64,000 bases of DNA from a virus (taxonomy: Duplodnaviria > Caudoviricetes): IMG/VR virus record IMGVR_UViG_3300009873_000020, positions 1,387 to 65,386 of that record. One strand, 5' to 3'. Numbering within the stretch: position 1 is the stretch's first letter; every line of letters begins with the position of its first letter. The notes beneath the pieces were generated by a model, which was not told the origin of the DNA, did no database searches, and was given only the letters and a program-made list of their open reading frames with translations. Shown in pieces: positions 13,697 to 54,807 of the stretch. The translations under genes and the position numbers were made by a program.

Positions 13697-14298
13697 CCCG
13701 CACGGTAACCAACGACTTTCTGACCGAGGCGGAGGCCGTGTTGTGCAGGCCGCTATTACTTTATGAAGGCACCTTCGACCCGACCGTTGTGCGCCTGGCC
13801 AACACCGCCCGCGACGTGAGTTGGGACAGCAAGACCTGGCTCGCAAACGGCTACCTGCACGTGCCCGAGGGCGGCGGCGAGAGCGCGGAGCTTGAGCCCA
13901 TCGGGTTCGAGGTAGTGTTGAGCGGCGTGCCGTCTGACCTCCTCTCCATCGTGTTGGGGGAGGCAAGACAAGGGCTGCCGGGGAATGTCTGGTTCGGCTT
14001 TTTCGATTCGGACTGGCAGGTGGTGGACGACCCGTACCTGCTTTGGTCCGGCAAGTTCGACACCGCAAACATCAACGAGACTCCCACCGGGTCCGTCATC
14101 ACACTCAGCTACGAGAGCGACCTTGCGGACCTGGACCGCCCGATAGAGCTTCGCTGGACCCACGAGACGCAGCGGCATTTTTACCCGGACGATCTCGGCT
14201 TCGTTTACGTGCCGCAGCTCCAGGACTGGGACGGTTTCTGGGGCAAGAGCAGGGCCAAGGTAAGAAAGAAGAAGCGGAAACGGAGGGAGGGTAAATGA
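13693..14298 (+). CDS. Baseplate hub-like minor tail protein
   Basis: W.GNG-like, G..D...I, RWT.E.Q...YP.D.GF.YV..LQ.W..FWG. Confidence 0.7.
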   Translation: MTRTVTNDFLTEAEAVLCRPLLLYEGTFDPTVVRLANTARDVSWDSKTWLANGYLHVPEGGGESAELEPIGFEVVLSGVPSDLLSIVLGEARQGLPGNVWFGFFDSDWQVVDDPYLLWSGKFDTANINETPTGSVITLSYESDLADLDRPIELRWTHETQRHFYPDDLGFVYVPQLQDWDGFWGKSRAKVRKKKRKRREGK

Positions 14299-17200
14299 TC
14301 GACGATCCGTTCCCGCCGGCATTGCCGATTGGCAACTACGCGCCCGTCGTCAAGGAGCGCGACCCGTGGCACGTAACGAAAGACGAAGTTGAGAAGTATT
14401 TAAAGAACCACAGGCGGGCCAAGGCGAGCCGCAAAGTCATTCGTCAACGCTTGAGGGCCGCAAAGATAAAGAACGCTCCGGGCAAGGAGGTGTCCTTTAG
14501 CCAGTCGGACGCGCCGTGGCAGATAATTTATGGCACCGTGCGGGTGCCGGGCGTGTTGACCTTCGCCCACATCACCAACAACAACTACGACCTCCACCAA
14601 GTCTACACCATCGCCGGGCACGAGGTTCAGGCGATCAATTACGTGTACCTGGACGACGCAAGAATCACCTTCGACGGGAGCGGCGAGGGTGTGGCGACCG
14701 GGGAGGTGAAAAACGGGGCGTCCGGCACCAACTACCTGAACGTGTTCGCCATGCACCGGGCGCTCGGCGGGCCGAACCAGGACGCCATCGGGGAACTCGT
14801 CACCAGGGCTTTGGCCTTTTGGACCCAGAACCACCGGCAGCGAAACCACGCCCACGTCTACCTCCGATTCCACTGGAACGCCGAGAAGTACCCGGAGAAT
14901 TTGCCGGACGTGACGTTCGAGGTGCAGGGGGAGAAGTGCTACGATCCGCGCACCGCCAGCATCTCGTTCACGCAGAACGCAGCGCTCTGCATCGGCGACT
15001 TCCTGATGGACCAGAAGTACGGCTGCAAGATCCCGATCTCCAGGATCTACGTCGGCTCCGGCTCGAGCGACGAGGGCTCTCTCTGGTGGGCCGCCGACAT
15101 CTGCGACGAGGAGGTAAACCTGGTGGGCGGCGGGACCGAGGCGCGCTATACCCTGAACGGCTACTTCGACGCCTCCCGCACCAGGCGCGAAATACTCGAA
15201 GAGATGCTAACCGCGATGGGCGGGAGCATCACCTACTCGGGCGGCCTCTGGAAGTTCTGGCCCGCCGCCTGGCGCGCCCCGGCCCAGGCGTTTGAAGAGG
15301 GTGACATCCTGGGAGACATCAACGTTCAAACTCACGTCCCAAGAAGAGACAGCTTTAACGCGGTTAAAGGCACCTACGCCTCAGCGCTCCACAACTACGA
15401 GGAGACAGACTTTCCCCCGGTTACAAACGCCCTTTACCTGAGCCAAGACAACGATGAGCGTATCTGGGAAGATATCGTGCTCCCCTTTACGACGAGCGGC
15501 TCGGCGGCCCAACGGCTCGCAAAGATCGCCCTGGAGAAACAGCGCCAGCAAATCAGCATCGAGTTTACCGCTAAACTAAAGGCGCTTCAGTGCGAGGTGC
15601 CAGACAACATCACCGTCACCTACTCGCGGTTCGGCTGGACCAGCAAGGCTTTCGAGCTGATCGACTTCAAGCCGCTGGCCGAAAGTGACGAAAACGGCGT
15701 GCCGGTGTTCATGGTTCAGATCTCGGCCAGGGAAACCGCCGAGGGCGTTTACGACTGGAATAACGGCGACGAAACCACCATCGACCTCGCGCCCAACACC
15801 ACCCTGCCGAGCGCTTCGAGCTACACCCTGCCGACTGGCGTGTTACTGGAGAGCGGGACGAGCCACCTCTACATCCGGTCGGACGGCACCGTCTTTAGCC
15901 GCATCAAGGTTAGTTGGGACGAGATGACGGACGCTTTCGTCTCCTCGGGCGGCTTTATCGAAATCCAGTACAAGCAGTCGAGCGCGAGCGACTGGCAGAA
16001 CGCCTCTTCCGTGCCGGGCGACCAAACTTTTACTTACATCCTTGACGTTCAAGACGGCGCTCAGTACGACGTGCGGATCAGGTCGAAAAGCGCCTTGGGG
16101 GTTTTGTCTCCCTTCACCGACATCCACTCCCACATCGTTATCGGCAAGCGCGAGCCGCCGTCCAACGTCACCGGATTCTCGGCCCAAATTCAGCAGTTCG
16201 GCATCCTGCTTTTCTGGAACAAACCTCCCGATCTCGATCTCTCGCAGCACGAGATAAGGATCGGGGGTTCGAGCTGGGAGACCGCCACCTTCCTCCAGGC
16301 GGTAGACGGCACGAGCGTTTTTGTGAAGATGCAGAACGCGGGCGGCTACACCTTCTGGATCAAGGCCATCGACACGAGCGGCAACTACAGCGCCGCTGCC
16401 GCCTCGCTCGACACCACCATCGCGGGGCCGGGGGCGCCCTTCACCACCTTCTCCCTCTCCGGCCCGAACGTCCTTTTCGAGTGGACGGCGCCCGGCTCCC
16501 ACTTCGGCATCGACGAGTACCTCATCAGCTACGGCCCGGCCTACGCAAGCTCGATATTCGTGGCGTCCGTCAAGGGCACGCGCTACGCCCTCAAGGCCGA
16601 GTGGAGCGGCACCCGAAGATTTTGGATTGCGGCCAAGGACGTGGCGGGCAACATCGGCACGCCCTACCAGATCGACATCAACATCGTGACTGCCGGGATC
16701 GTGCAGAACTTGCGCTCCGAGGTGATCGACAACTTCATCCTGCTCCGGTGGGACAAGCCCTCCGCCTCTACCCTGCCGCTCGACCACTACAAAGTCTACA
16801 AGGGCACGCCGTTTTCCAGCGCGATGCTCATCGGGCAGTTAAGCGGCACTTTCTTCACGCACTTCGAGACCCAGGCCGGAACTTACACCTACTGGGTGCG
16901 CTCGTTCGACTCCGCTGGGAACGCCGGGGCCGAGCTTTCCATCACGGCCACGATGGCGCAGCCGCCCGACTACGTGCTGCTCGATAACTTCATCGTGGAC
17001 CCCTCGACCTACACCTCCAAGGCCAACGTCGTCACCGACAACTTCGAACTGGTCGGCCCCATCAAGGAGGAGACGTGGGAGGAACATTTCGTCGATAACG
17101 GATGGGACACGCCCGAGGACCAGATAAGCGCGGGCTATCCGTACTACTGCCAGCCAGGCGCCGAAGAGGGGCACTGGGAGAAGGTGATCGATCTGGGCGG

Positions 17201-17438
17201 CGTGGTCGGCACCGCCATCTTGAAGCTCTCTTACGTTCAAGACGATCTGGTGGGGGAGCCGAACTTCGCGGTGAAGCTTGCGTATAGCTTTGACGGCGCA
17301 AGCTGGACCGAAGAGGTGGGAGTGACGCATTTATTCTCCACGAATTTTCGGTTTGTAAAAATTCGATTTGAATTTGAAAGCGTGAGCACGGGTTCTGGGG
17401 AGCCGGTCGGCGTACTTTTGAGTATCACGAAGCCATGA
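14295..17438 (+). CDS. Tail tip / central fibre protein (J-like) with FN3 repeats; C-terminal domain apparently truncated
   Basis: IIYG..RV.G, V.G..CYDPRT, QNAALC..D, R.TLNG; repeated PPSNVTGF/WNKP/Y.FWIKAID FN3 units. Confidence 0.9.
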   Translation: MIDDPFPPALPIGNYAPVVKERDPWHVTKDEVEKYLKNHRRAKASRKVIRQRLRAAKIKNAPGKEVSFSQSDAPWQIIYGTVRVPGVLTFAHITNNNYDLHQVYTIAGHEVQAINYVYLDDARITFDGSGEGVATGEVKNGASGTNYLNVFAMHRALGGPNQDAIGELVTRALAFWTQNHRQRNHAHVYLRFHWNAEKYPENLPDVTFEVQGEKCYDPRTASISFTQNAALCIGDFLMDQKYGCKIPISRIYVGSGSSDEGSLWWAADICDEEVNLVGGGTEARYTLNGYFDASRTRREILEEMLTAMGGSITYSGGLWKFWPAAWRAPAQAFEEGDILGDINVQTHVPRRDSFNAVKGTYASALHNYEETDFPPVTNALYLSQDNDERIWEDIVLPFTTSGSAAQRLAKIALEKQRQQISIEFTAKLKALQCEVPDNITVTYSRFGWTSKAFELIDFKPLAESDENGVPVFMVQISARETAEGVYDWNNGDETTIDLAPNTTLPSASSYTLPTGVLLESGTSHLYIRSDGTVFSRIKVSWDEMTDAFVSSGGFIEIQYKQSSASDWQNASSVPGDQTFTYILDVQDGAQYDVRIRSKSALGVLSPFTDIHSHIVIGKREPPSNVTGFSAQIQQFGILLFWNKPPDLDLSQHEIRIGGSSWETATFLQAVDGTSVFVKMQNAGGYTFWIKAIDTSGNYSAAAASLDTTIAGPGAPFTTFSLSGPNVLFEWTAPGSHFGIDEYLISYGPAYASSIFVASVKGTRYALKAEWSGTRRFWIAAKDVAGNIGTPYQIDINIVTAGIVQNLRSEVIDNFILLRWDKPSASTLPLDHYKVYKGTPFSSAMLIGQLSGTFFTHFETQAGTYTYWVRSFDSAGNAGAELSITATMAQPPDYVLLDNFIVDPSTYTSKANVVTDNFELVGPIKEETWEEHFVDNGWDTPEDQISAGYPYYCQPGAEEGHWEKVIDLGGVVGTAILKLSYVQDDLVGEPNFAVKLAYSFDGASWTEEVGVTHLFSTNFRFVKIRFEFESVSTGSGEPVGVLLSITKP

Positions 17439-18730
17439 CGATCACTAAGTTAGTTGAATACGAATCTGCCATGACGACCTTCGGCGCCTACCTCTCGGCT
17501 CATCTTGCAGATCCGACCATCTCAGACGAGCAAAAGCTGTCGAATGTTTACTACGACGCGCAATACGTTTTCTACCGCATCGCGACCTACACCAACGATC
17601 ACGCCACCTGGAACCTGGCGGCGGAAAGGGCCGAGGCAATCTACCGCGACTATTACCTCATCCCTTCAAACGCCCAGGTGCCGGGTTTTTGGGCCTTTAC
17701 GGAAGGGTTGAAAGAGTCGTGGCTAAGGACTCAAGACGGCATCAGTAAGACCTGGGCCATCAACATCTCGAACAACGCTGCCTACCACTCGGAAGTGCCG
17801 GACACCTTGACGGATCTGGCGGACGATTTGTTCGCGAGAGAAAACGCCTACGCCCTCTTGAGCCATTTAAATGCCGAGCTTTTAGGGGCTCCGAGGAGGG
17901 AGAGGATCTACACGCTGGTCGATAATGCTCTGGGCCACATCGACGCCTGGGTGAACGAGACGGCCTCCTACTGTAAGCCATTCTTTACAGCCTTAACGTG
18001 CCGCTCGCTCATCAGGTATAACGACATGATCGGCGACAGCCGGATCGTGCCGGCCATCGAGTCCATCTGCGACTACATCTGGGACAACCTCTGGGACGCG
18101 GGGGCCGAGGCGTTTCTCTACATCCACGACGTTTATCCGGGGGAAGATCCGCCAGACCCGGCGCCCGACTTGAACATGCTGATCGTGCCGAGCTATGGGT
18201 ATCTTTATTCCAAAACCTTCGACTCAAACTGGCTTACCATAGGGGACCAGATTTTCGACGGCGGCGTGCCGATCTACGACGAGTGGGGCTTTCACGTTAG
18301 CGGCGCGTACCTTGGCCAGTCGAACTCGGCCGGCGTGAACGGCAAGCACTTCGACCAGCAGTTCCTCTGGAGCATGGATTATCTTACGTGGGCTCAGGCG
18401 GTCGAGCCGATAAGCGGCGGCATGACGGGCTTCGGCGACATCGCCCGAGTCTTTAACATCGGCTTGAGGCTCGATGCCAAGGTAATTAAAGACTCGGGCA
18501 GCCAAACGGTTACTGACGCGGCCAGCGGCGCCGTGGTACAGTTCAACAAAAGCTTTGTGGACATAAAGAGCCTACACGTAACGCCCCAGTTTAGCTCGAG
18601 CTATCCGCTGACTGCCGTGTACGATTTTCAAGACGTGCCGAACCCTACAAGCTTTATCGTGTATCTTTACAGGACCGATACGGGCGCGAAGGTGACGGGA
18701 AACTTTAGCTGGTTTGTAGAAGGATATTAG
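17435..18730 (+). CDS. Helical-barrel (putative six-hairpin glycosidase-like) domain fused to a tail-tip C-terminal beta domain
   Basis: aa ~5-325 align by eye with 53701-54807; last ~95 aa (LRLDAK..DSG...F...F.DI.S..VTP...YDF.DVPNPTSF.V.L...G..V.G.FSW..EG) resemble tail-tip C-termini. Confidence 0.7.
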   Translation: MTITKLVEYESAMTTFGAYLSAHLADPTISDEQKLSNVYYDAQYVFYRIATYTNDHATWNLAAERAEAIYRDYYLIPSNAQVPGFWAFTEGLKESWLRTQDGISKTWAINISNNAAYHSEVPDTLTDLADDLFARENAYALLSHLNAELLGAPRRERIYTLVDNALGHIDAWVNETASYCKPFFTALTCRSLIRYNDMIGDSRIVPAIESICDYIWDNLWDAGAEAFLYIHDVYPGEDPPDPAPDLNMLIVPSYGYLYSKTFDSNWLTIGDQIFDGGVPIYDEWGFHVSGAYLGQSNSAGVNGKHFDQQFLWSMDYLTWAQAVEPISGGMTGFGDIARVFNIGLRLDAKVIKDSGSQTVTDAASGAVVQFNKSFVDIKSLHVTPQFSSSYPLTAVYDFQDVPNPTSFIVYLYRTDTGAKVTGNFSWFVEGY

Positions 18731-18732
18731 TT

Positions 18733-19410
18733 ATGTCTGATAGTTCCATCCCAATTACTCCCGGATCTGGTCTCAACCTCGATACCCGCACCGAGGGCAC
18801 CAACTCGGAGCATAGGCAAGTGATCGTCATCGGCGATCCGAGCACCAACGCGGGCGTGGCGCCGGTCAGTGCCACCGAAGGGCTCTCGGTAAAGATCGCC
18901 AACAGCACCGCCCCGTCCGTCAGCATTGCCGGCTCGTACAATCCTCACGGCGGCGCCGCTTCCGGCTCTCCGCTTTCGATGGGCCTTACTGCCTACACCG
19001 ACTGGCCGACCGTGCAGGACTCGGGCGATAACTTGAGGGTGGGGGGCGATCTGGTCGGAAGGCCCATCATCATGCCCTACACGATCCCGGAGAAGCTGTT
19101 TAACAACCACATCTCAAGCGCCATTACCGACACGACCGCAACCGCGATCAAGAGCGCGGGGGGCGCGGGGATTCGCTTCCTGGTTACGACCTGGACGGTA
19201 CTGAACACCCACGGGACGGTAGGGACGGTGGTGCAGTTGCTCGACGATTCGACGCTCCTTTGGCAGACGTATGTGGCGGCGTTAAGTGACAAGACCTTTT
19301 CGTTCCTGAATCCCTTGCGGGGGACGGCGAACAAAGCTTTAAACGTCAAGCCACTTACAACCGGCTCATCTATCCTGTCGTCCGTCGCCGGCTTTATCAA
19401 TCCATACTAG
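18733..19410 (+). CDS. Hypothetical structural protein (beta-rich)
   Basis: Ser/Thr/Gly-rich, within tail operon. Confidence 0.6.
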   Translation: MSDSSIPITPGSGLNLDTRTEGTNSEHRQVIVIGDPSTNAGVAPVSATEGLSVKIANSTAPSVSIAGSYNPHGGAASGSPLSMGLTAYTDWPTVQDSGDNLRVGGDLVGRPIIMPYTIPEKLFNNHISSAITDTTATAIKSAGGAGIRFLVTTWTVLNTHGTVGTVVQLLDDSTLLWQTYVAALSDKTFSFLNPLRGTANKALNVKPLTTGSSILSSVAGFINPY

Positions 19411-19418
19411 AGTGAGTC

Positions 19419-20519
19419 ATGCCTGACTGGAACGATCCCACCATCACCCGCCGTTACGACACTGAGTTTACGCAAGACTTGAAAGCCTTGCGGGACTCTC
19501 AGGCGAAGCTTTTTGATGACGGCGTGAGCTGGTCGAACCTGCCTTCCGGCACGATCCGCTATTCGACCTCGAACAAGCGTTTCGAGAAGTGGAACGGAAG
19601 CGCATGGGCCGCGATCACCGAGTGGGCCATTCCCACCATCACGTCCTGCGGTCAGATAACGAATACCGGCACCATGAACATCGGGCCGAGCACGAACCAC
19701 GACCTTCGCTTCGACTCAAACGGCGCCACCCGCTTCGTGGTGGACGCCTCCCGCCTCTACCCGAATCAGCATGATACTTACGACATCGGCACCGCGTCAC
19801 TCCGCATCCGGGACGCCCACATCGCAAACGTAAAGAACGTCGGCACCCTCATAAACGGCAACACCATGACGATAGGGCCGACCAACTCGAACGACTTGAA
19901 CTTCCAAACTAACGGATCGTGGAAGCAAAAGATCGCCGCCGCCGGCCACTTACTCCCAAACGGAGATGACACTTACAACTTGGGAGCGGCGTTCGGCTCG
20001 GGGAGGTATTTGAGCGTGTACGCTGCGGCGCTGCGCGACTGCGCCAACCTCATAAACGGCAACGACATGACGATAGGGCCGTCGAGCGCTCATGTGCTGA
20101 ACCTGCGAACCAATGACCTCGTGCGGTTCTACGTGGACGCGACCGGGAATCTTTCGGGCGACGGCACCAACAGCGGCAACATTGTGTTCCTGAAGGCCGG
20201 AACCGGCATCGTGAACGCCGTCGATACGGGCGTGACCGCCACCGGCTCGGACCAGGCGGGCGCTTTAGCGATCACAAAACACGTCACCGTCATCTCGGGC
20301 GGGGCCGCCGACACGGGGGTTCGGTTATTCGCCCCTGCCGCCGGCTCGCAATCCTTCACGATCTATAACGATTCCGGCTCGAATAAAAAAGTTTATCCGC
20401 CCTCGGGCGCTGCGTTTTTCGACAACCCGGCCAACGCCGCCATCACGCTAGGCAACAACACGGCAGCGCTCTTTAGTATCATCAGCGCTACCAAGTGGGC
20501 CTATTTCGCGGGACCGTAA
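19419..20519 (+). CDS. Tail fibre-like protein with three internal repeats
   Basis: GTIRY.....FEKWNGSAW; three MxIGP...L.F.TNG repeats. Confidence 0.75.
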   Translation: MPDWNDPTITRRYDTEFTQDLKALRDSQAKLFDDGVSWSNLPSGTIRYSTSNKRFEKWNGSAWAAITEWAIPTITSCGQITNTGTMNIGPSTNHDLRFDSNGATRFVVDASRLYPNQHDTYDIGTASLRIRDAHIANVKNVGTLINGNTMTIGPTNSNDLNFQTNGSWKQKIAAAGHLLPNGDDTYNLGAAFGSGRYLSVYAAALRDCANLINGNDMTIGPSSAHVLNLRTNDLVRFYVDATGNLSGDGTNSGNIVFLKAGTGIVNAVDTGVTATGSDQAGALAITKHVTVISGGAADTGVRLFAPAAGSQSFTIYNDSGSNKKVYPPSGAAFFDNPANAAITLGNNTAALFSIISATKWAYFAGP

Positions 20520-23567: not shown

Positions 23568-23972
23568 ATGGGAAGCTTTGCCGATTATTTAGAGAATGCC
23601 CTGTTGGATCACGCCTTTGGCGGCGGAGACTTTACCCGACCGGCGACGGTTTACGTTGGGCTATCTACTAGCACCATCACCGATGCCGGCGGAAACATCA
23701 CCGAGCCTTCAGGCAATGCCTACGCACGGGTAGCGGTGACTAATAACTCAACCAACTTTCCGAGTGCGTCGGGGGGCGCCAAGGCTAACGGGGCCGCCAT
23801 CACGTTTCCAGCCGCTACCGGCTCCTGGGGCACCGTGACGGATTTCTTCATTTCAGACGCTTCTTCAGGAGGCAACATCATGGGGTATGGAGCGCTGACG
23901 ACAGCGAAAGCCATCACGACAGGAGATGTGGCCAGTTTTGCAGTCGGAGAACTCGATCTGGCGCTATCATAA
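23568..23972 (+). CDS. Conserved small phage tail-associated protein
   Basis: ADYLENALLDH, VYVGL.T, E.SG..YARVAV, ITFP.AT..WGTVT, DA.SGGN. Confidence 0.75.
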   Translation: MGSFADYLENALLDHAFGGGDFTRPATVYVGLSTSTITDAGGNITEPSGNAYARVAVTNNSTNFPSASGGAKANGAAITFPAATGSWGTVTDFFISDASSGGNIMGYGALTTAKAITTGDVASFAVGELDLALS

Positions 23973-24299: not shown

Positions 24300-24932
24300 G
24301 TGCTACCCGAACTTATCGTTCAGATGAATGACCTTTTCAAGAACGAGGCGCCACGTCATATGGCGCTTCTGCGGGACAAGGCGCAGCAGGGCGACATGAT
24401 CGAGGTGATAAAGGAGGCGCACGGCCTGGCGGGGACCGCCCGCAAGATCGAGGCCGTGGGACTGTACGAGCTTTGCATGTCGATTGAGCGCTTCGCCAAG
24501 GACGGTAACAAGGCGAGCCTGATGGAGTCCCTCTTCCACCTGGAGGCGGCCTATAATGACGCGCTGCACCAGGCGAACAAAACTACCATTGATCGTCGCC
24601 TCGAAGGGGTGGAGGCGAGCATCGTAAAGTTCGAGGCGTCACTTAAGCAGGAAATGAACGAAATGAAGTTGGCGCTACGCGATCATATCAAGAAACAGGA
24701 TGAGATATTACACAGCATTCGGGACAACACGGACGAGGTAAAGCGCTTCACCGAATCGGTCGGCAGGGAGTTCACCTCGATGGTGCAAGCGATCCTCGGG
24801 AAAAAGCAGGTGCCGCTCGAGATTTTCCAACGAATCATGACCATCTTTAGTTTGATTGCGATGGCCCTGGCCACGATCATTATTTTCCTCATCACGGGAA
24901 AACACCTCGGTTGGATACCGCCGATACCATGA
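24300..24932 (+). CDS. Hpt-domain protein with coiled coil and C-terminal TM helix, in holin position
   Basis: EAHGLAGTARKIEAVGLYELCMSIE resembles Hpt AHxLKGxxxxIGAxxLxxxCxxLE; TM at aa ~179-200; SD GGAGGA; ATGA overlap with endolysin. Confidence 0.7.
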   Translation: MLPELIVQMNDLFKNEAPRHMALLRDKAQQGDMIEVIKEAHGLAGTARKIEAVGLYELCMSIERFAKDGNKASLMESLFHLEAAYNDALHQANKTTIDRRLEGVEASIVKFEASLKQEMNEMKLALRDHIKKQDEILHSIRDNTDEVKRFTESVGREFTSMVQAILGKKQVPLEIFQRIMTIFSLIAMALATIIIFLITGKHLGWIPPIP

Positions 24933-45538: not shown

Positions 45539-47305
45539 CTACTGCCCCACATATTCTTCGAACTCTCTCAGCGCTTCTTCTTGCGCGGCCTCATCGAACG
45601 TCCGCTCCCAACAAGCCTTGTAGCCAGCGCTAAAATCATCAAAGCGCGTATCGGGCGGGCACGTCGGCGCCGGCATTGGCGTTTCTGTCGGCGTTGGCTC
45701 AGGCGTAGCGGTTTTCGTCGGCCCAGCAGTCCTGGTAGGCGTTGGCGTCACGCGGGGGGTACTCGTCGGGCGCCTCGTTGGAGTTGCCCTCGGCGTCCTG
45801 GTCGGCATGACGGAAGGCCGAGGCGTTCTTGTCGCTGTCGGGGTTCTTGTCGCTGTCGGCTCCCGCGTCGGCGTAACAGTCGGCGTTTCTGTTGCCGTTG
45901 GCGTTGCGGTCGGTGTCCATGTAGGCACCCCCGGAGGCCAAGTTGCGGTCGGTGTGGGCGTAGGCCAAGGCTCGGCATCACCGACGAAGGTGGCGAGCCA
46001 GTGCTCAAGAGTAGTCCTTCCGTCTGGTTGCAGCTCCATCGCATCACTCGGCACATCAAGCGTTCGCGTCGTCTCGGGTATCTCGGGCCAGGGGCCGGCG
46101 GGTACGTCGCCTGGATCGCAATTCTCGAAGCAGTCAACAAGCTTTCCAACTCCAGATGAGGTTTGCGCCAAGATTTCTTGATCGAGCGGATATCGGTTCC
46201 AGGGGCGCGATCCGACGATTGGAAGGAGTTGCGATAAAAGATCTTCAGGCGAGATTACGCCTACAGTGGACCCCGGAAAAGCAGGCTCACTAACGAGCAT
46301 CGGTGTCGGACCATCAAAGACGCGGCCAGCAGGACACTCATTCATGGCGGCATAAATCGTGCTGCCTTGCGGAATCCCTTTATCATAGTAAATGCAAGGA
46401 AAGTCACCTTGCGAAGCTCCACCACGTCTGTAAACGTTGCCAAGGAAGTTAATTCGGTTCGCCGGGTAAGTGGCACCAAGCGTCATGTTAAAATAATTCC
46501 AGCCGGTGAACGCCCCGAAATTAAAGAAAACTGAATTGATTACCTCCATCGTGATCCCTGCCTTGGCTCGCAGATTGCGATCATGACAGTTACTTACGAT
46601 GTTACGGATAAAGCTGATGTTAGTGTTATTTGAATCAATCATCCCCGCTTTAGAGTGCCCGTCTCCTGTCTGGGCAGTCTTAGGATGGATGCTAAACATC
46701 AAGGCATTAGCGATAAGCGAGCGCGATACCGTAACGTCTGACACCTTCTGATAGGTGCTGAAGTTCTCGTCAACCGCATGGGTCATACTCAGTCTGTCGA
46801 GCACCACGTTTTTTACCGGGACCGAGGAGCCGCCCCAGATAGTGACACCATCCCTTGAGCCGGGATCTTCCCCAGTGATCCTGTCGCCAGGACGCACCGC
46901 CAGATCTTGAATAAAGACATCGCTCGCCTGAATGATGATGCGAGAGTTTCTGACGTGCAGGCCCGGACTCGGACAGGTGGAGCCGAAGAACGACATCTGG
47001 CCGCTCGTGACAATCAGCTTACTTTGAAGATCGACGTATCCGGCGACCTCACATAAAATTGTCCTGCTTCCGGTGGCAGTAAACGCAGCGCGAAGAGAGC
47101 CAGGCCCGGAATCATTGAGGTTCGTCACACGGAGGATTTGCGTGTTGGCGGGTAATGTTGATCGTCCACTTCCAGCAACAGTCTCGCAGCCAAAAGTGTC
47201 GCAGCCGGGGTAGATGGGGATCGCTAAAGCGGTTGAGGCAAAAACGAGTATGGAGAGTAGAAAGCAGAGTAGACGTGTCATGCCCCGAACTATACCACAC
47301 CACAC
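45539..47305 (-). CDS. Exported pectate lyase-like protein (PL1-type beta helix) with Pro/Thr linker
   Basis: Signal peptide; [29 protein letters not shown]......DEN, N.ISF..N, DR.L. Confidence 0.88.
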
Positions 47306-53484: not shown

Positions 53485-53704
53485 GTATTGCGACGTGTGC
53501 GGAGAGCGTATCCTGTTAATAGCGCACGAGTCGCGGGAGTTTCGCGTGGACCAGATCAAGGAAACGCTCTACTGCCACAAGCGCTGCATCCCGGCCCTTC
53601 AGGCCGCTCAGGGCGACTGGAGCAAGCTGCCGCATGGGCCGCTTCGGACAGCGTTCGAGCGGGACGATGCGGCAAGACAACTGTTGATTAAGGAGGTTGA
53701 GTGA
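53465..53704 (+). CDS. Zn-finger hypothetical protein
   Basis: CDVC...CH..C. Confidence 0.55.
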   Translation: MLVKKGEYCDVCGERILLIAHESREFRVDQIKETLYCHKRCIPALQAAQGDWSKLPHGPLRTAFERDDAARQLLIKEVE

Positions 53705-54807
53705 AACGATTTCTAATACTACTGGCTTTTCCCTCCATCGCGTTAGCGCAGCACTCAAACTATAACCAGTGCGTTTCGTACTGGAAAAAGCAATGTAAGG
53801 CCATCTACGCTACCCCCACTCCGACGCCAAAACCGACCCGAACGCCGAAGCCAACGCCGACCAGGACGCCCGAGCCGGAACCGACCTCGGGGGGCGGTGG
53901 CTTGATGATCGACGAATGGGAAACGGCAATGGTGACGCACGGCACCAAGCACTGTGACAGGATGAAAAGCGGCTCAGTCAGTAACGCGCAAAAGCTCCCC
54001 GACACTTACTACGACCTGGAGCGGATCGCCTTTCAGATAGCTGACTACACCCAAGACGAGAGCTGGACGCTATGCGCCCAGGCCGCCGAGAAGGTGTACC
54101 GAGACCATTTCTTGCGAGCGGACAACGCGCAAGCGCCGGGGTACTGGGTGTTCTCACATGGTTTGCACATGGACTATGACCGGACGGGAGACGCCGAGAG
54201 CAAGCGTTTCGTGGGGTTGTTAGCCATCAACGCTGCGTTTGCCCAGGCAAGCCCCTGGAACGATAAAGAGATGCCGAAAGCGGCGTACAGCAGGGAAACG
54301 GCCTATGCCCTCATGACGCACCTTGCCAACGCCAAGCTCGGCACCATCAACACGGCCCGGATCGCACAGCTCGCAGGTTTCGCGCTCGGACACATAGACC
54401 AATGGGCGAACAACCAGACATTCGTCAAGCCCTTCATGGCGGCCCTGACCGCCGAGGCCCTGATCGAGTACCACGCTCGCTACGACGATAGCCGCGTGCT
54501 GCCTGCCCTTGAGAAGCTGGCCGATTACGTCTGGGACAAGACCTGGCGGCAGAGCGCTGAGGCGTTCTTGTATATCGACAGGTCTATTTCTGGAGAAGAC
54601 CCATCAATCCCAGCTCCAGATTTGAACCTCCTTATCTCACCAATGTTTTCTTGGCTATGGTATCAAACAGGACAAGTACGGTTCAAAGATCGACATGACG
54701 CAATTTGGAACGGTGGCGTGAAGCGAGCATGGCTTGCTGGAGCGAAGGTATTTAACCAGTCTATGAGATGGTCAATTCAAGGGCTTAAGTGGAGGCAAAG
54801 TAAATGA
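53701..54807 (+). CDS. Exported helical-barrel protein, paralogue of 17435-18730, with Pro/Thr linker
   Basis: Signal peptide MKRFLILLAFPSIALA; (PT)n linker; YYD, PGYW.F, RE.AYAL, GHID.W, KPF, EAFLYI, GEDP..PAPDLN.LI shared. Confidence 0.8.
   Translation: MKRFLILLAFPSIALAQHSNYNQCVSYWKKQCKAIYATPTPTPKPTRTPKPTPTRTPEPEPTSGGGGLMIDEWETAMVTHGTKHCDRMKSGSVSNAQKLPDTYYDLERIAFQIADYTQDESWTLCAQAAEKVYRDHFLRADNAQAPGYWVFSHGLHMDYDRTGDAESKRFVGLLAINAAFAQASPWNDKEMPKAAYSRETAYALMTHLANAKLGTINTARIAQLAGFALGHIDQWANNQTFVKPFMAALTAEALIEYHARYDDSRVLPALEKLADYVWDKTWRQSAEAFLYIDRSISGEDPSIPAPDLNLLISPMFSWLWYQTGQVRFKDRHDAIWNGGVKRAWLAGAKVFNQSMRWSIQGLKWRQSK

Follow-up and report, generated by a model that had tools for sequence, protein, structure and literature searches.

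In one-piece J-like proteins such as gpJ of phage lambda, the receptor-binding domain is part of the same chain as the rest of the tail tip. Completion of a fold by a second polypeptide is known from chaperone-usher pili (Fim, Pap, Caf1), in which a sandwich that lacks its last strand receives this strand from another polypeptide. In the gp38 adhesins of T2/S16-type phages and in the fibre branching and anchoring systems of Klebsiella phages and jumbo phages, a downstream-encoded protein that attaches to the fibre end provides specificity or enzymatic activity. In phage T5 the central fibre and the receptor binder (pb4 and pb5) are the products of separate genes, an arrangement also proposed for the F-type pyocin PyoF10 (PMC13455828). 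The locus described here belongs to a siphophage with a J-like tail tip from sewage sludge and was analysed within a stretch of 64,000 nucleotides, hereafter the window. As read from its homologues and from a predicted model, the tip domain of this phage is encoded in two genes, with the cut placed inside one small beta-sandwich (Table 1).

The first of these genes follows a 1040-aa (tape-measure-sized) ORF and two ORFs of 203 and 201 aa, and the same gene order precedes J in four related loci (L001, L003, L005 and L027). Its 1047-aa product (P0001) matches PF13550 (Phage-tail_3) at residues 295-442 (E 1.3e-8, 35.4 bits versus a cut-off of 23) as well as phrog_5616, phrog_31 (central tail fiber J, E 2e-74) and phrog_1727, shares 46% identity with the relative P0027 along its whole length, and ends in FRFVKIRFEFESVSTGSGEPVGVLLSITKP. 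The second gene, ORF2, starts within an ATGA overlap, which probably couples its translation to that of J, and its product ends in FSWFVEGY. ORF2 lies in the -1 frame relative to J, and this frame is open from position 17378, 57 nt ahead of the J stop codon. The two protein ends, the ATGA overlap and the open -1 frame had been reported in a first-pass annotation of the window and hold on re-examination, as does the near-duplication encoding I-T-K on either side of the stop and start codons: the pattern ATCACKAAG occurs just twice in the window, as ATCACGAAG at 17424-17432 and as ATCACTAAG at 17441-17449. By itself this pair is statistically unremarkable, since at least two such matches arise in 20 of 100 shuffles. 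The first copy codes for the conserved C-terminus of the J tail (SITKP, AITKAS, TITKA and TITKP in relatives) and the second for the conserved N-terminus of the barrel (MTITA, MAITK and VAITK in relatives); the repeated ITK reflects conserved protein termini and not an insertion scar.

Table 1. Features of the split tail-tip locus and of the barrel paralogue, in window coordinates.
Feature	Position	Strand	Evidence or remark
J-like tail-tip (central fibre) gene, P0001	14295..17438	+	PF13550, PHROG matches, gene order
Jelly-roll domain A minus last strand, J residues 927-1029	17073..17381	+	Profile E 7e-40
J C-terminal extension, 18 residues, with tail motif GEPVGVLLSITKP at 17397-17435	17382..17435	+	
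9-nt near-repeat ATCACGAAG / ATCACTAAG around stop/start	17424..17449	+	Both encode I-T-K
ORF2, P0002: barrel, linker, domain-A last strand and knob B	17435..18730	+	431 aa
(alpha/alpha)6 barrel module, ORF2 residues 1-325	17435..18409	+	Predicted model and fold matches
Short Gly-rich linker, ORF2 residues 326-335	18410..18439	+	Low model confidence, no unsplit counterpart
Orphan last beta-strand of domain A, ORF2 residues 336-350, IARVFNIGLRLDAK	18440..18484	+	Alignment to unsplit model
Knob B, six-stranded terminal beta domain, ORF2 residues 351-431	18485..18727	+	Predicted model
Secreted barrel paralogue P0042 (signal peptide, Pro/Thr linker, barrel)	53701..54807	+	

The evidence for a single domain divided between two chains comes from unsplit homologues. 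In 11 unsplit J-like proteins, the region matching J residues 860 to about 1030 is followed, only 1-10 residues further on, by the region matching ORF2 residues 331-431, as exemplified by P0035, in which the J-like piece spans residues 548-716 and the ORF2-like piece residues 718-814. The proposal of the first-pass annotation that the C-terminal ~95 residues of ORF2 belong with the J C-terminus is thus borne out. In the predicted model of an unsplit relative (pLDDT 83.8), two beta domains, A and B, could be told apart with VIA-align: domain A has over 30 structural matches, which cover model residues 40-132 and always include the strand 121-132, and the matches to knob B begin at residues 133-136. 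With Foldseek, the same model yielded nothing beyond weak matches to discoidins over two domains (E 2e-3, rmsd 14 Å). The J part of domain A corresponds to the strands at 43-115 of this model and closes with the strand FRFVKIRFEFE, which places the cut between the strands 104-115 and 121-132, the last two of domain A. The two strands flanking the break are consecutive, as the first-pass annotation had stated for this tail-tip family; the single C-terminal domain assumed at that stage has given way to two. A profile of the N-terminal part of domain A finds J residues 927-1027 (E 7e-40) as its single copy in the window, and a profile of the C-half likewise finds one copy, so each piece has one partner.

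On the ORF2 side, residues 336-350 align to the model strand 121-132 of the unsplit relative. This orphan strand is predicted to be disordered (pLDDT 39-48) in a model of ORF2 by itself, in which no segment other than the one around it (residues 327-347) has low confidence. The Gly-rich linker that precedes it has no equivalent in the unsplit homologues. The strand itself is kept in every split form as a run of alternating hydrophobic residues followed by K/R-L/I-D. Domains A and B are therefore not continuous with the J chain, which stops after the second-to-last strand of domain A and leaves the remainder to ORF2: by homology and by the unsplit model, one chain contains a beta-sandwich without its last strand and the other contains this strand at a defined place.

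Knob B folds confidently in the ORF2 model. Its equivalent in the unsplit model matches the tip of the AP22 gp53 fibre (4mtm; Z 9.1, rmsd 2.2 Å, 79 residues) and the foot of the R2 pyocin fibre (6cl6; Z 8.6, rmsd 2.2 Å), both matches covering model residues 133-217. A stand-alone homologue of the C-half, P0040, gives a weak match to PF21882 (Gp53-like_C) at 14.8 bits (E 0.042; cut-off 24.9), and the stand-alone C-half has no PHROG match. Knob B is the probable receptor-binding end.

The same cut is found in other phages. In L001, a J of 1018 aa is followed after a 1-nt gap by a 103-aa gene in the +1 frame; in L027, a J of 1019 aa is followed by a 12-nt spacer containing a Shine-Dalgarno site (AGGAG) and by a 100-aa gene with a GTG start; in L028, two genes separate the halves and the second piece carries a different cargo, a domain of 390 residues of unknown function; and in a further junction type, a 24-nt gap lies between the genes and a stop codon in the ORF2 frame follows the J stop. 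L001, L027 and L028 are all barrel-free. In total, four junction types besides that of the window occur at the same or a nearby loop and in differing frames, and the cargo of the second piece may be absent, the barrel or the 390-residue domain. Among the best 150 of 1173 relatives, knob B is always at the extreme C-terminus; stand-alone C-halves of 93-108 aa account for 12 of these 150 best cluster representatives, and in this set the stand-alone genes of about 100 aa always start exactly at the orphan strand. The architecture of the window (barrel and C-half only) is unique among the same 150. These comparisons show the cut to be a recurring way of hanging cargo on the tail tip. In the closest relatives the cut is present without any insert, so the barrel was either acquired by a gene that had been split before or lost from such a gene. 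A 98-column tree of the C-half from 160 proteins, with 13 of its 157 inner branches well supported, does not allow fission events to be counted; its well-supported branches force only at least two origins of the stand-alone C-half, and neither the number nor the direction of fissions is claimed here. Searches of the phage GenBank collection gave no matches to ORF2 (tblastn) or to positions 16800-18730 (blastn). Elsewhere in this region, relatives also contain in-frame insertions, e.g., a Laminin_G_3 domain in P0034.

Taken together, these data make it probable that the receptor-binding end of the J-like tail tip consists of two polypeptides, J and ORF2, that complete each other in trans. In this model, J would contribute the hub, an FN3-like fibre and all of domain A except the final beta-strand, followed by the hydrophobic tail GEPVGVLLSITKP. 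ORF2 would supply the missing strand, so that the sandwich would be closed in trans by strand complementation, and then knob B. Because the barrel precedes this strand in ORF2, it would sit on the loop that connects the two final strands of domain A, and the J tail would most likely act as a second clamp by docking onto the barrel. A split tip that displays an enzyme-like domain had been one of the readings offered by the first-pass annotation and fits all the evidence. The gene structure, the collinearity with unsplit homologues, the recurrence of the cut, the folds and the joint occurrence of tail motif and barrel are shown by the comparisons, whereas reassembly in trans, docking of the tail and catalysis by the barrel are inferred.

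Alternatively, the halves might not reassemble at all: the truncated domain A would persist as a stump that is tolerated and perhaps closed by the tail of J, and ORF2 an independent accessory protein that retains a relic strand and is attached elsewhere or free. Since knob B is confidently predicted to fold alone, ORF2 could in principle be stable without attachment, and the halves in L028 are not adjacent. Self-closure of the stump is also conceivable, given a loose resemblance between the J tail (VGVLLSITKP) and the strand end YVRLTITKP of L027. We nevertheless regard this reading as unlikely. Both the orphan strand, present in all split forms, and the J-side partial domain (recovered at E 7e-40) are conserved, which is not what would be expected of relics, the stand-alone C-half genes begin exactly at the orphan strand, and this strand is disordered when modelled without its partner.

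An additional element of this locus is the helical insert of ORF2 noted in the first-pass annotation, which is predicted by model (mean pLDDT 87.9) and fold matches to be an (alpha/alpha)6 barrel. Its structural matches by VIA-align include cellobiose 2-epimerase (Z 21.6, rmsd 3.5 Å over 307 aligned residues), N-acylglucosamine 2-epimerase (Z 21.2) and GH88 glucuronyl hydrolases (Z 20.8), with Foldseek matches at E 1e-4 to 1e-3. At the sequence level, P0002 belongs to no Pfam or PHROG family, and neither this protein nor its 16 aligned relatives matches PF07470, PF07221 or similar Pfam families at E <= 0.05; a relative with tandem barrels, P0003, alone reaches PF07470 (28.3 bits versus a cut-off of 26.6). 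Sequence searches of the PDB gave no matches for P0002 or for the barrel profile. The invariant polar and aromatic residues of the family include D41, R135, E136, H168, W172, Y179, D245, K304 and Q308. The only second copy in the window, P0042, is 39% identical to the ORF2 barrel over 315 residues (E 4e-73) and has a signal-peptide-like N-terminus. Most of 80 metagenomic relatives, judged by eye, have a signal peptide or a Pro/Thr linker. By these sequence and fold criteria, the barrel family is a large, mostly secreted and uncharacterised one with the fold of carbohydrate enzymes. The most likely role of the barrel, going by its predicted fold, is to bind or cut host surface polysaccharide; since its sequence finds no counterpart in Pfam, PHROG or the PDB, it may alternatively be a binding module or scaffold. 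A pathway combining a lyase with a hydrolase is not relied on, as the pectate-lyase reading of 45539-47305 received no support from Pfam at E <= 0.05.

The barrel is associated with a second feature, the C-terminal extension of J, which is missing from the closest barrel-free relatives (ending in TLEKP and TITKP). Among the loci compared, every J-like or beta-helix fibre protein whose gene directly precedes a barrel gene terminates in one to three copies of a hydrophobic, GxPxGLLLxIT-like tail. This motif occurs upstream of the barrel in J-like proteins of the window, L003, L005, L029, L030 and L031, and also in L006/L007 and L008, where the preceding protein is a 604-aa fibre, and in L018. 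The J copy is the only one in the window, and the barrel-free splits L001, L027 and L028 have no tail motif. In P0190, a fibre of the 604-aa type is fused in frame to the barrel, and a Pro/Thr linker occupies the position of the hydrophobic tail and stop codon of the split forms. The pairing of motif and barrel is found in about four independent lineages and fails in four to five phage contexts, in which an ORF starting with the barrel has no upstream tail (L009/L037, L019, L089 and L102). A metagenome census returned mostly secreted, non-tail forms and did not enlarge the sample. From this co-occurrence, we infer that the J tail is a docking peptide for the barrel. A broader proposal, to be taken as tentative, is that the tail peptide and the downstream barrel constitute a portable plug-and-socket pair not described before, which together with the recurrent cut would form a two-point dock. 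Phages would in this way equip J-like fibres and beta-helix spikes with enzymes or complete receptor-binding heads, and where the tail is repeated, with flexible linkers between its copies, one chain could hold several heads. Completion of the fold combined with a peptide held in the barrel would make receptor-binding ends exchangeable as separate genes.

The same association could have another meaning, namely that the barrel serves chiefly as a chaperone of assembly, or as a cap, for the C-terminus of the upstream fibre, of the Tfa or gp38 type, and not a displayed glycan-active module. The barrel is encoded directly downstream of fibre genes, the upstream C-terminal motif is conserved, and downstream-encoded fibre chaperones and caps are well known (an example, according to its title, is PMC10579305). 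However, receptor-binding domains are covalently linked to the barrel both in the window and in seven further clusters, so that the barrel must travel with them; moreover, most members of its family are secreted proteins that have signal peptides and lie outside any fibre context, and the fold and conserved polar pocket residues of the barrel match those of carbohydrate-active enzymes. A chaperone or cap function is consequently an improbable main role.

The reading in which J and ORF2 are in reality one protein, either through a one-base assembly error or through -1 frameshifting or bypass, so that the barrel would be a plain in-frame domain insertion, is very improbable. The open -1 frame ahead of the J stop and the in-frame insertions known from this region in relatives would fit it. 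An assembly error or a programmed frameshift is nevertheless disfavoured, because relatives with the same cut have varied frames, spacers and cargo, because positions 17378-17435 contain neither an X XXY YYZ heptamer nor a homopolymer run of at least six, and because a separately assembled Logan contig of 44,262 nt, at depth 27, matches the window at every position from 17000 to 18000, an agreement that is not read-independent as the contig probably derives from the same reads of the source sample. No fusion of J, barrel and C-half was found among longer proteins, which argues weakly in the same direction. Both the frameshift fusion and the assembly error raised in the first-pass annotation are accordingly abandoned. 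An intein or trans-splicing is dismissed since neither protein has such a Pfam match and the termini have no Cys/Ser or His-Asn hallmarks, and UGA read-through would add only four residues before a TAG.

Separately encoded receptor binders were known already; a limited literature search retrieved no description of a cut within a small beta-sandwich that recurs in many uncultured phages with differing cargo at the break. Provided that the two halves do reassemble, the loop ahead of the final strand of domain A represents a natural and tolerated point of insertion and fission, and tips could be engineered to display an enzyme or to swap the receptor-binding knob while leaving the large J gene untouched. 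If the tail motif and the barrel are a true docking pair, they would represent a compact new attachment tag for phage fibres. The presence of virion-bound and secreted forms of the barrel in one phage suggests a role in passing the host polysaccharide in sludge flocs.

Compared with the described systems, this tail tip shares with lambda gpJ and other one-piece J-like proteins (PF13550, phrog_31; PDB 8iyk and 9e7m) the hub, the FN3-like repeats and the position after the tape measure; the relative P0035 matches gpJ residues 412-596 with an E of 1.8e-24. In contrast to lambda J, the chain is broken here inside the terminal jelly-roll, and the knob is of the gp53/pyocin kind. Knob B has the same fold as the AP22 gp53 tip (4mtm, PF21882) and the R1/R2 pyocin foot (6cl6, 6cu2, 6cxb), with 77-79 residues aligned at 13-18% identity, but those belong to side fibres of a myophage and of pyocins and this one to the central fibre of a siphophage. 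The barrel shares its fold over about 300 residues with GH88/GH105 hydrolases and AGE-family epimerases (Z 20-21.6), at an identity of only 8-13%. In T5 pb4/pb5 and PyoF10 whole domains dock, whereas here the break lies within one beta-sandwich, which means that one strand must be donated in trans, and the second chain carries an (alpha/alpha)6 barrel. The gp38 adhesins and the branching and anchoring systems rely on a docking domain at the N-terminus for their attachment to a trimeric tip, and the attachment proposed here consists of fold completion and of a C-terminal peptide bound in the barrel. Chaperone-usher pili offer the same strand complementation that is postulated for domain A, with no chaperone or exchange step in evidence here, and serve as a working analogy and not as a class to which this tip would belong. 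As the donated strand is the native last strand of a domain that most relatives encode without a break, the arrangement looks like the outcome of gene fission rather than a dedicated polymerisation mechanism.

The upstream gene is, judged by its sequence, that of a J-like tail-tip protein (J): the product carries PF13550 and has hits to phrog_31 ('central tail fiber J') and to phrog_1727, and its gene lies where a siphophage tail block ends, on a contig of about 65 kb from an activated-sludge metagenome. As the first-pass annotation had read, the ATG of the next gene (ORF2) overlaps the TGA of J. J ends in a strand-like FRFVKIRFEFE followed by SVSTGSGEPVGVLLSITKP, and ORF2 encodes about 325 mostly helical residues and then a beta-rich C-terminal stretch. 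The 9-nt near-duplication reported at this junction is indeed present, and its two copies are the only matches to the pattern in the window, but two matches arise somewhere in 20 of 100 shuffles and the repeat alone is thus not significant. An exact 10-nt repeat also lies here, the second copy of which spans an internal in-frame ATG (Met13 of ORF2) in the E-x-x-M motif that is conserved at the N-terminus of the barrel; Met13 is a possible alternative start.

Positions in the window of the genes, repeats and domain matches discussed
Feature	Position	Strand	Remarks
J	14295-17438	+	1047 aa ORF
9-nt near-repeat	17424-17432 and 17441-17449		ATCACGAAG / ATCACTAAG
Exact 10-nt repeat	17432-17441 and 17468-17477		GCCATGACGA; spacing 36 nt
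ORF2	17435-18730	+	431 aa ORF
225-aa ORF	18733-19410		no family match
366-aa protein	19419-20519
PF23140 match	23568-23972		E 2.9e-42
210-aa protein	24300-24932		Hpt domain (PF01627, E 1.4e-9)
588-aa ORF	45539-47305	-	no Pfam match at E <= 0.05
Barrel paralogue	53701-54807		signal-peptide-like N-terminus and Pro/Thr linker; 39% identity over 315 residues, E 4e-73

This junction divides a single structural domain. A homologue search with J residues 860-1047 matched 13 J-like proteins, and in 11 of them the J match (to about residue 1030) directly precedes a match to ORF2 residues 331-431, as in the unsplit protein P0035 (J-like part 548-716, ORF2-like part 718-814). The alignment of unsplit proteins is collinear, with FRYVKV, a loop of 5-7 residues and then LLLLTALNVKLD, and the order in the window is the J strand, an 18-residue tail, the stop and start codons, the barrel and then IARVFNIGLRLDAK. 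The last 217 residues of the unsplit P0019 were modelled (pLDDT 83.8) and compared with solved structures. This model has two domains: domain A (model residues 40-132), a jelly-roll assigned to its fold class only, because Z scores of this size (here at most 7.6, against GOLD, CBM and phage needle domains) are commonplace, and knob B (133-217), a terminal beta domain and candidate receptor-binding end that matches the AP22 gp53 fibre tip (Z 9.1) and the R2 pyocin fibre foot (Z 8.6) and also resembles LKA1 and Pam1 tailspike ends and H-type lectin. Strand mapping places the cut between the second-to-last (104-115) and last (121-132) strands of domain A, and ORF2 thus holds this last, orphan strand and the whole of knob B (together, the C-half). 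In the model of ORF2 alone, it is precisely the orphan strand that is disordered. The two motifs described at the outset as consecutive strands of one domain are therefore both collinear in homologues and successive in the model; the cut does lie inside one domain, but the region initially taken for a single tip domain comprises two.

That the tip is encoded in two genes is borne out by three further contigs in which the same loop is cut with differing junctions, while unsplit relatives are contiguous. In L001, a J of 1018 aa (46% identical over its full length to that of the window) ends in ...TLEKP and a 1-nt gap precedes a 103-aa gene that begins at the orphan strand and lacks the barrel. 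In L027, a J of 1019 aa ends in ...TITKP, followed by a 12-nt spacer with AGGAG and a 100-aa gene with a GTG start. In L028, the upstream protein (378 aa) terminates after the same strand, and the downstream one (480 aa) consists of a 390-residue domain without a family match, the orphan strand and knob B; these halves (L028:2649-5943) are parted by two unrelated genes of 148 and 85 aa, the latter with a Cys-rich product. The suggestion of a one-base assembly error is rejected; the Logan contig, assembled from what is probably the source run, shows no difference from the window over 17000-18000. A frameshift fusion had also been considered, and the ORF2 frame is open from 17378, as originally noted. 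However, frames and spacers vary among loci and in L005 the J stop is followed by a stop in the ORF2 frame, which excludes a conserved frameshift, and the window overlap has no slippery heptamer and no long homopolymer; this reading too is rejected.

A profile of the C-half, searched against 1.84 billion representatives, retrieved 1173 relatives at E <= 1e-3, and in the best 150 of these it always occupies the extreme C-terminus. The architectures of 160 proteins (the best 150 of the 1173 and proteins found earlier) comprise 101 unsplit J-like proteins, 12 stand-alone C-halves (93-108 aa), five other cargoes with a C-half, 15 stand-alone A+B, seven barrel + A + B, 19 with another N-terminal domain before A + B, and one barrel + C-half, that of the window. 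Because the window has one N-terminal part of domain A and one C-half only, ORF2 is the only partner to hand. Two unsplit J-like proteins carry in-frame inserts elsewhere: in P0034 (1719 aa) a Laminin_G_3 domain sits in the following loop, behind KLKTDSGSG, and in P0039 (1592 aa) a Gly-rich, lectin-like segment interrupts the neck that precedes domain A. The tail-tip region tolerates insertions at several loops. Past ORF2 and the 225-aa ORF, the N-terminus of the 366-aa protein resembles a Collar-domain protein directly 3' of the L001 C-half gene (40% identity, 52 residues). The PF23140 match ('Podophage GP4 fiber I protein gp80'), a strong one, falls within a siphophage-type tail module, and the Hpt phosphotransfer domain just past the tail genes.

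ORF2 matches neither Pfam nor PHROG, nor any family at the sequence level. Its AlphaFold model (pLDDT 87.9) shows a confident helical domain (1-320), a low-confidence stretch (327-347) and a confident six-stranded unit (351-430). The helical insert proposed earlier is, by this model and its structure matches, an (alpha/alpha)6 barrel, closest to cellobiose 2-epimerase (Z 21.6), N-acylglucosamine 2-epimerase (21.2) and GH88 hydrolases (20.8), and next to GH105 enzymes and polysaccharide lyases; Foldseek gave E values of 1e-4 to 1e-3. This module (residues 1 to ~325) makes up a whole protein of 342 aa, is repeated in tandem, stands at the N- or C-terminal end of longer proteins and precedes beta domains. 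P0003 (631 aa) and P0004 (590 aa) are tandem forms, and P0003 is the only barrel relative to reach a Pfam glycoside-hydrolase model (PF07470, GH88; 28.3 bits vs a cut-off of 26.6). In a metagenome census most barrel relatives carry a signal peptide or Pro/Thr linker, with no tail context. Since the paralogue in the window is of exported type and ORF2 is tail-borne, this phage has the barrel in virion-linked and exported forms. Together with the fold and the many invariant polar and aromatic residues of the family alignment, the paralogue and secreted-type relatives point to an autonomous extracellular module, putatively for glycan binding or cleavage, that some phages mount on the tail tip.

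The J proteins preceding barrel genes share a C-terminal feature. J has no domain A in any of the seven 'barrel + A + B' clusters; past a neck (PPDF.L..., ~30 residues) it terminates in a motif present once to three times (e.g., GSPLGLLATITYA, GQPVGLLLAITNS, GSPVGILLSITHN), with Gly/Pro-rich linkers between the copies, and the barrel starts 1-24 nt after J in the five loci examined (L003, L005, L029, L030, L031). The J of the window ends in one such copy, GEPVGVLLSITKP, its sole occurrence there. Related hydrophobic Gly-rich tails precede the barrel gene in two unrelated kinds of protein, a 604-aa fibre (L006/L007, L008; ...GQAGGMILLGVGF, ...GQAGGITMLGVGY) and a 661-aa protein of L018 (...RGSLLSLGVGG), and the barrel-free splits L001, L027 and L028 have no such tail. 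In P0190 (1079 aa), an in-frame fusion of a 604-aa-type beta-helix-like fibre and the barrel, a Pro/Thr linker takes the position of the tail and stop codon of split forms; P0189 (897 aa) has these parts in the opposite order, and neither protein has a Pfam match. Motif codons vary among loci, which indicates selection on the peptide. We infer from these sequences that the J tail is a candidate docking peptide for the barrel, required only where the chain is broken. The loci behind this proposal come from perhaps four independent lineages, and the tail is absent in four to five other phage contexts. Between motif copies, the J tail of L029:290-3499 reads ...TMTITKN..., like the barrel N-terminus MTITK (window, L006), a resemblance possibly left by the shuffling of cassettes.

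The split-tip reading is thus supported. In the proposed assembly, J trimers would end as three open jelly-rolls, each closed by the first beta-strand of the C-terminal piece of ORF2; this donation would put knob B where one-piece relatives have it, at the tip, and the barrel on a hairpin loop, where it would be bound by the J tail leaving the same end of the sandwich. The ATGA overlap would provide coupled, roughly equimolar synthesis of J and ORF2. The relatives nearest to the window are split and barrel-free, so either a cassette of tail, stop/start and barrel was inserted into an existing break or it was lost from one, a choice for which the C-half tree is too weak.

Completion of a fold by a donated strand is a feature of chaperone-usher pili. 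A separately encoded receptor binder is established for T5, and the same has been proposed for F-type pyocin (PMC13455828). In open-access text, neither a J-like tip severed inside a domain nor the tail/barrel pair was found described. The recurrent fission of a jelly-roll just ahead of its last strand is a well-supported structural oddity, and the candidate peptide/barrel docking pair, as suggested by sequence, is plausibly a new feature.
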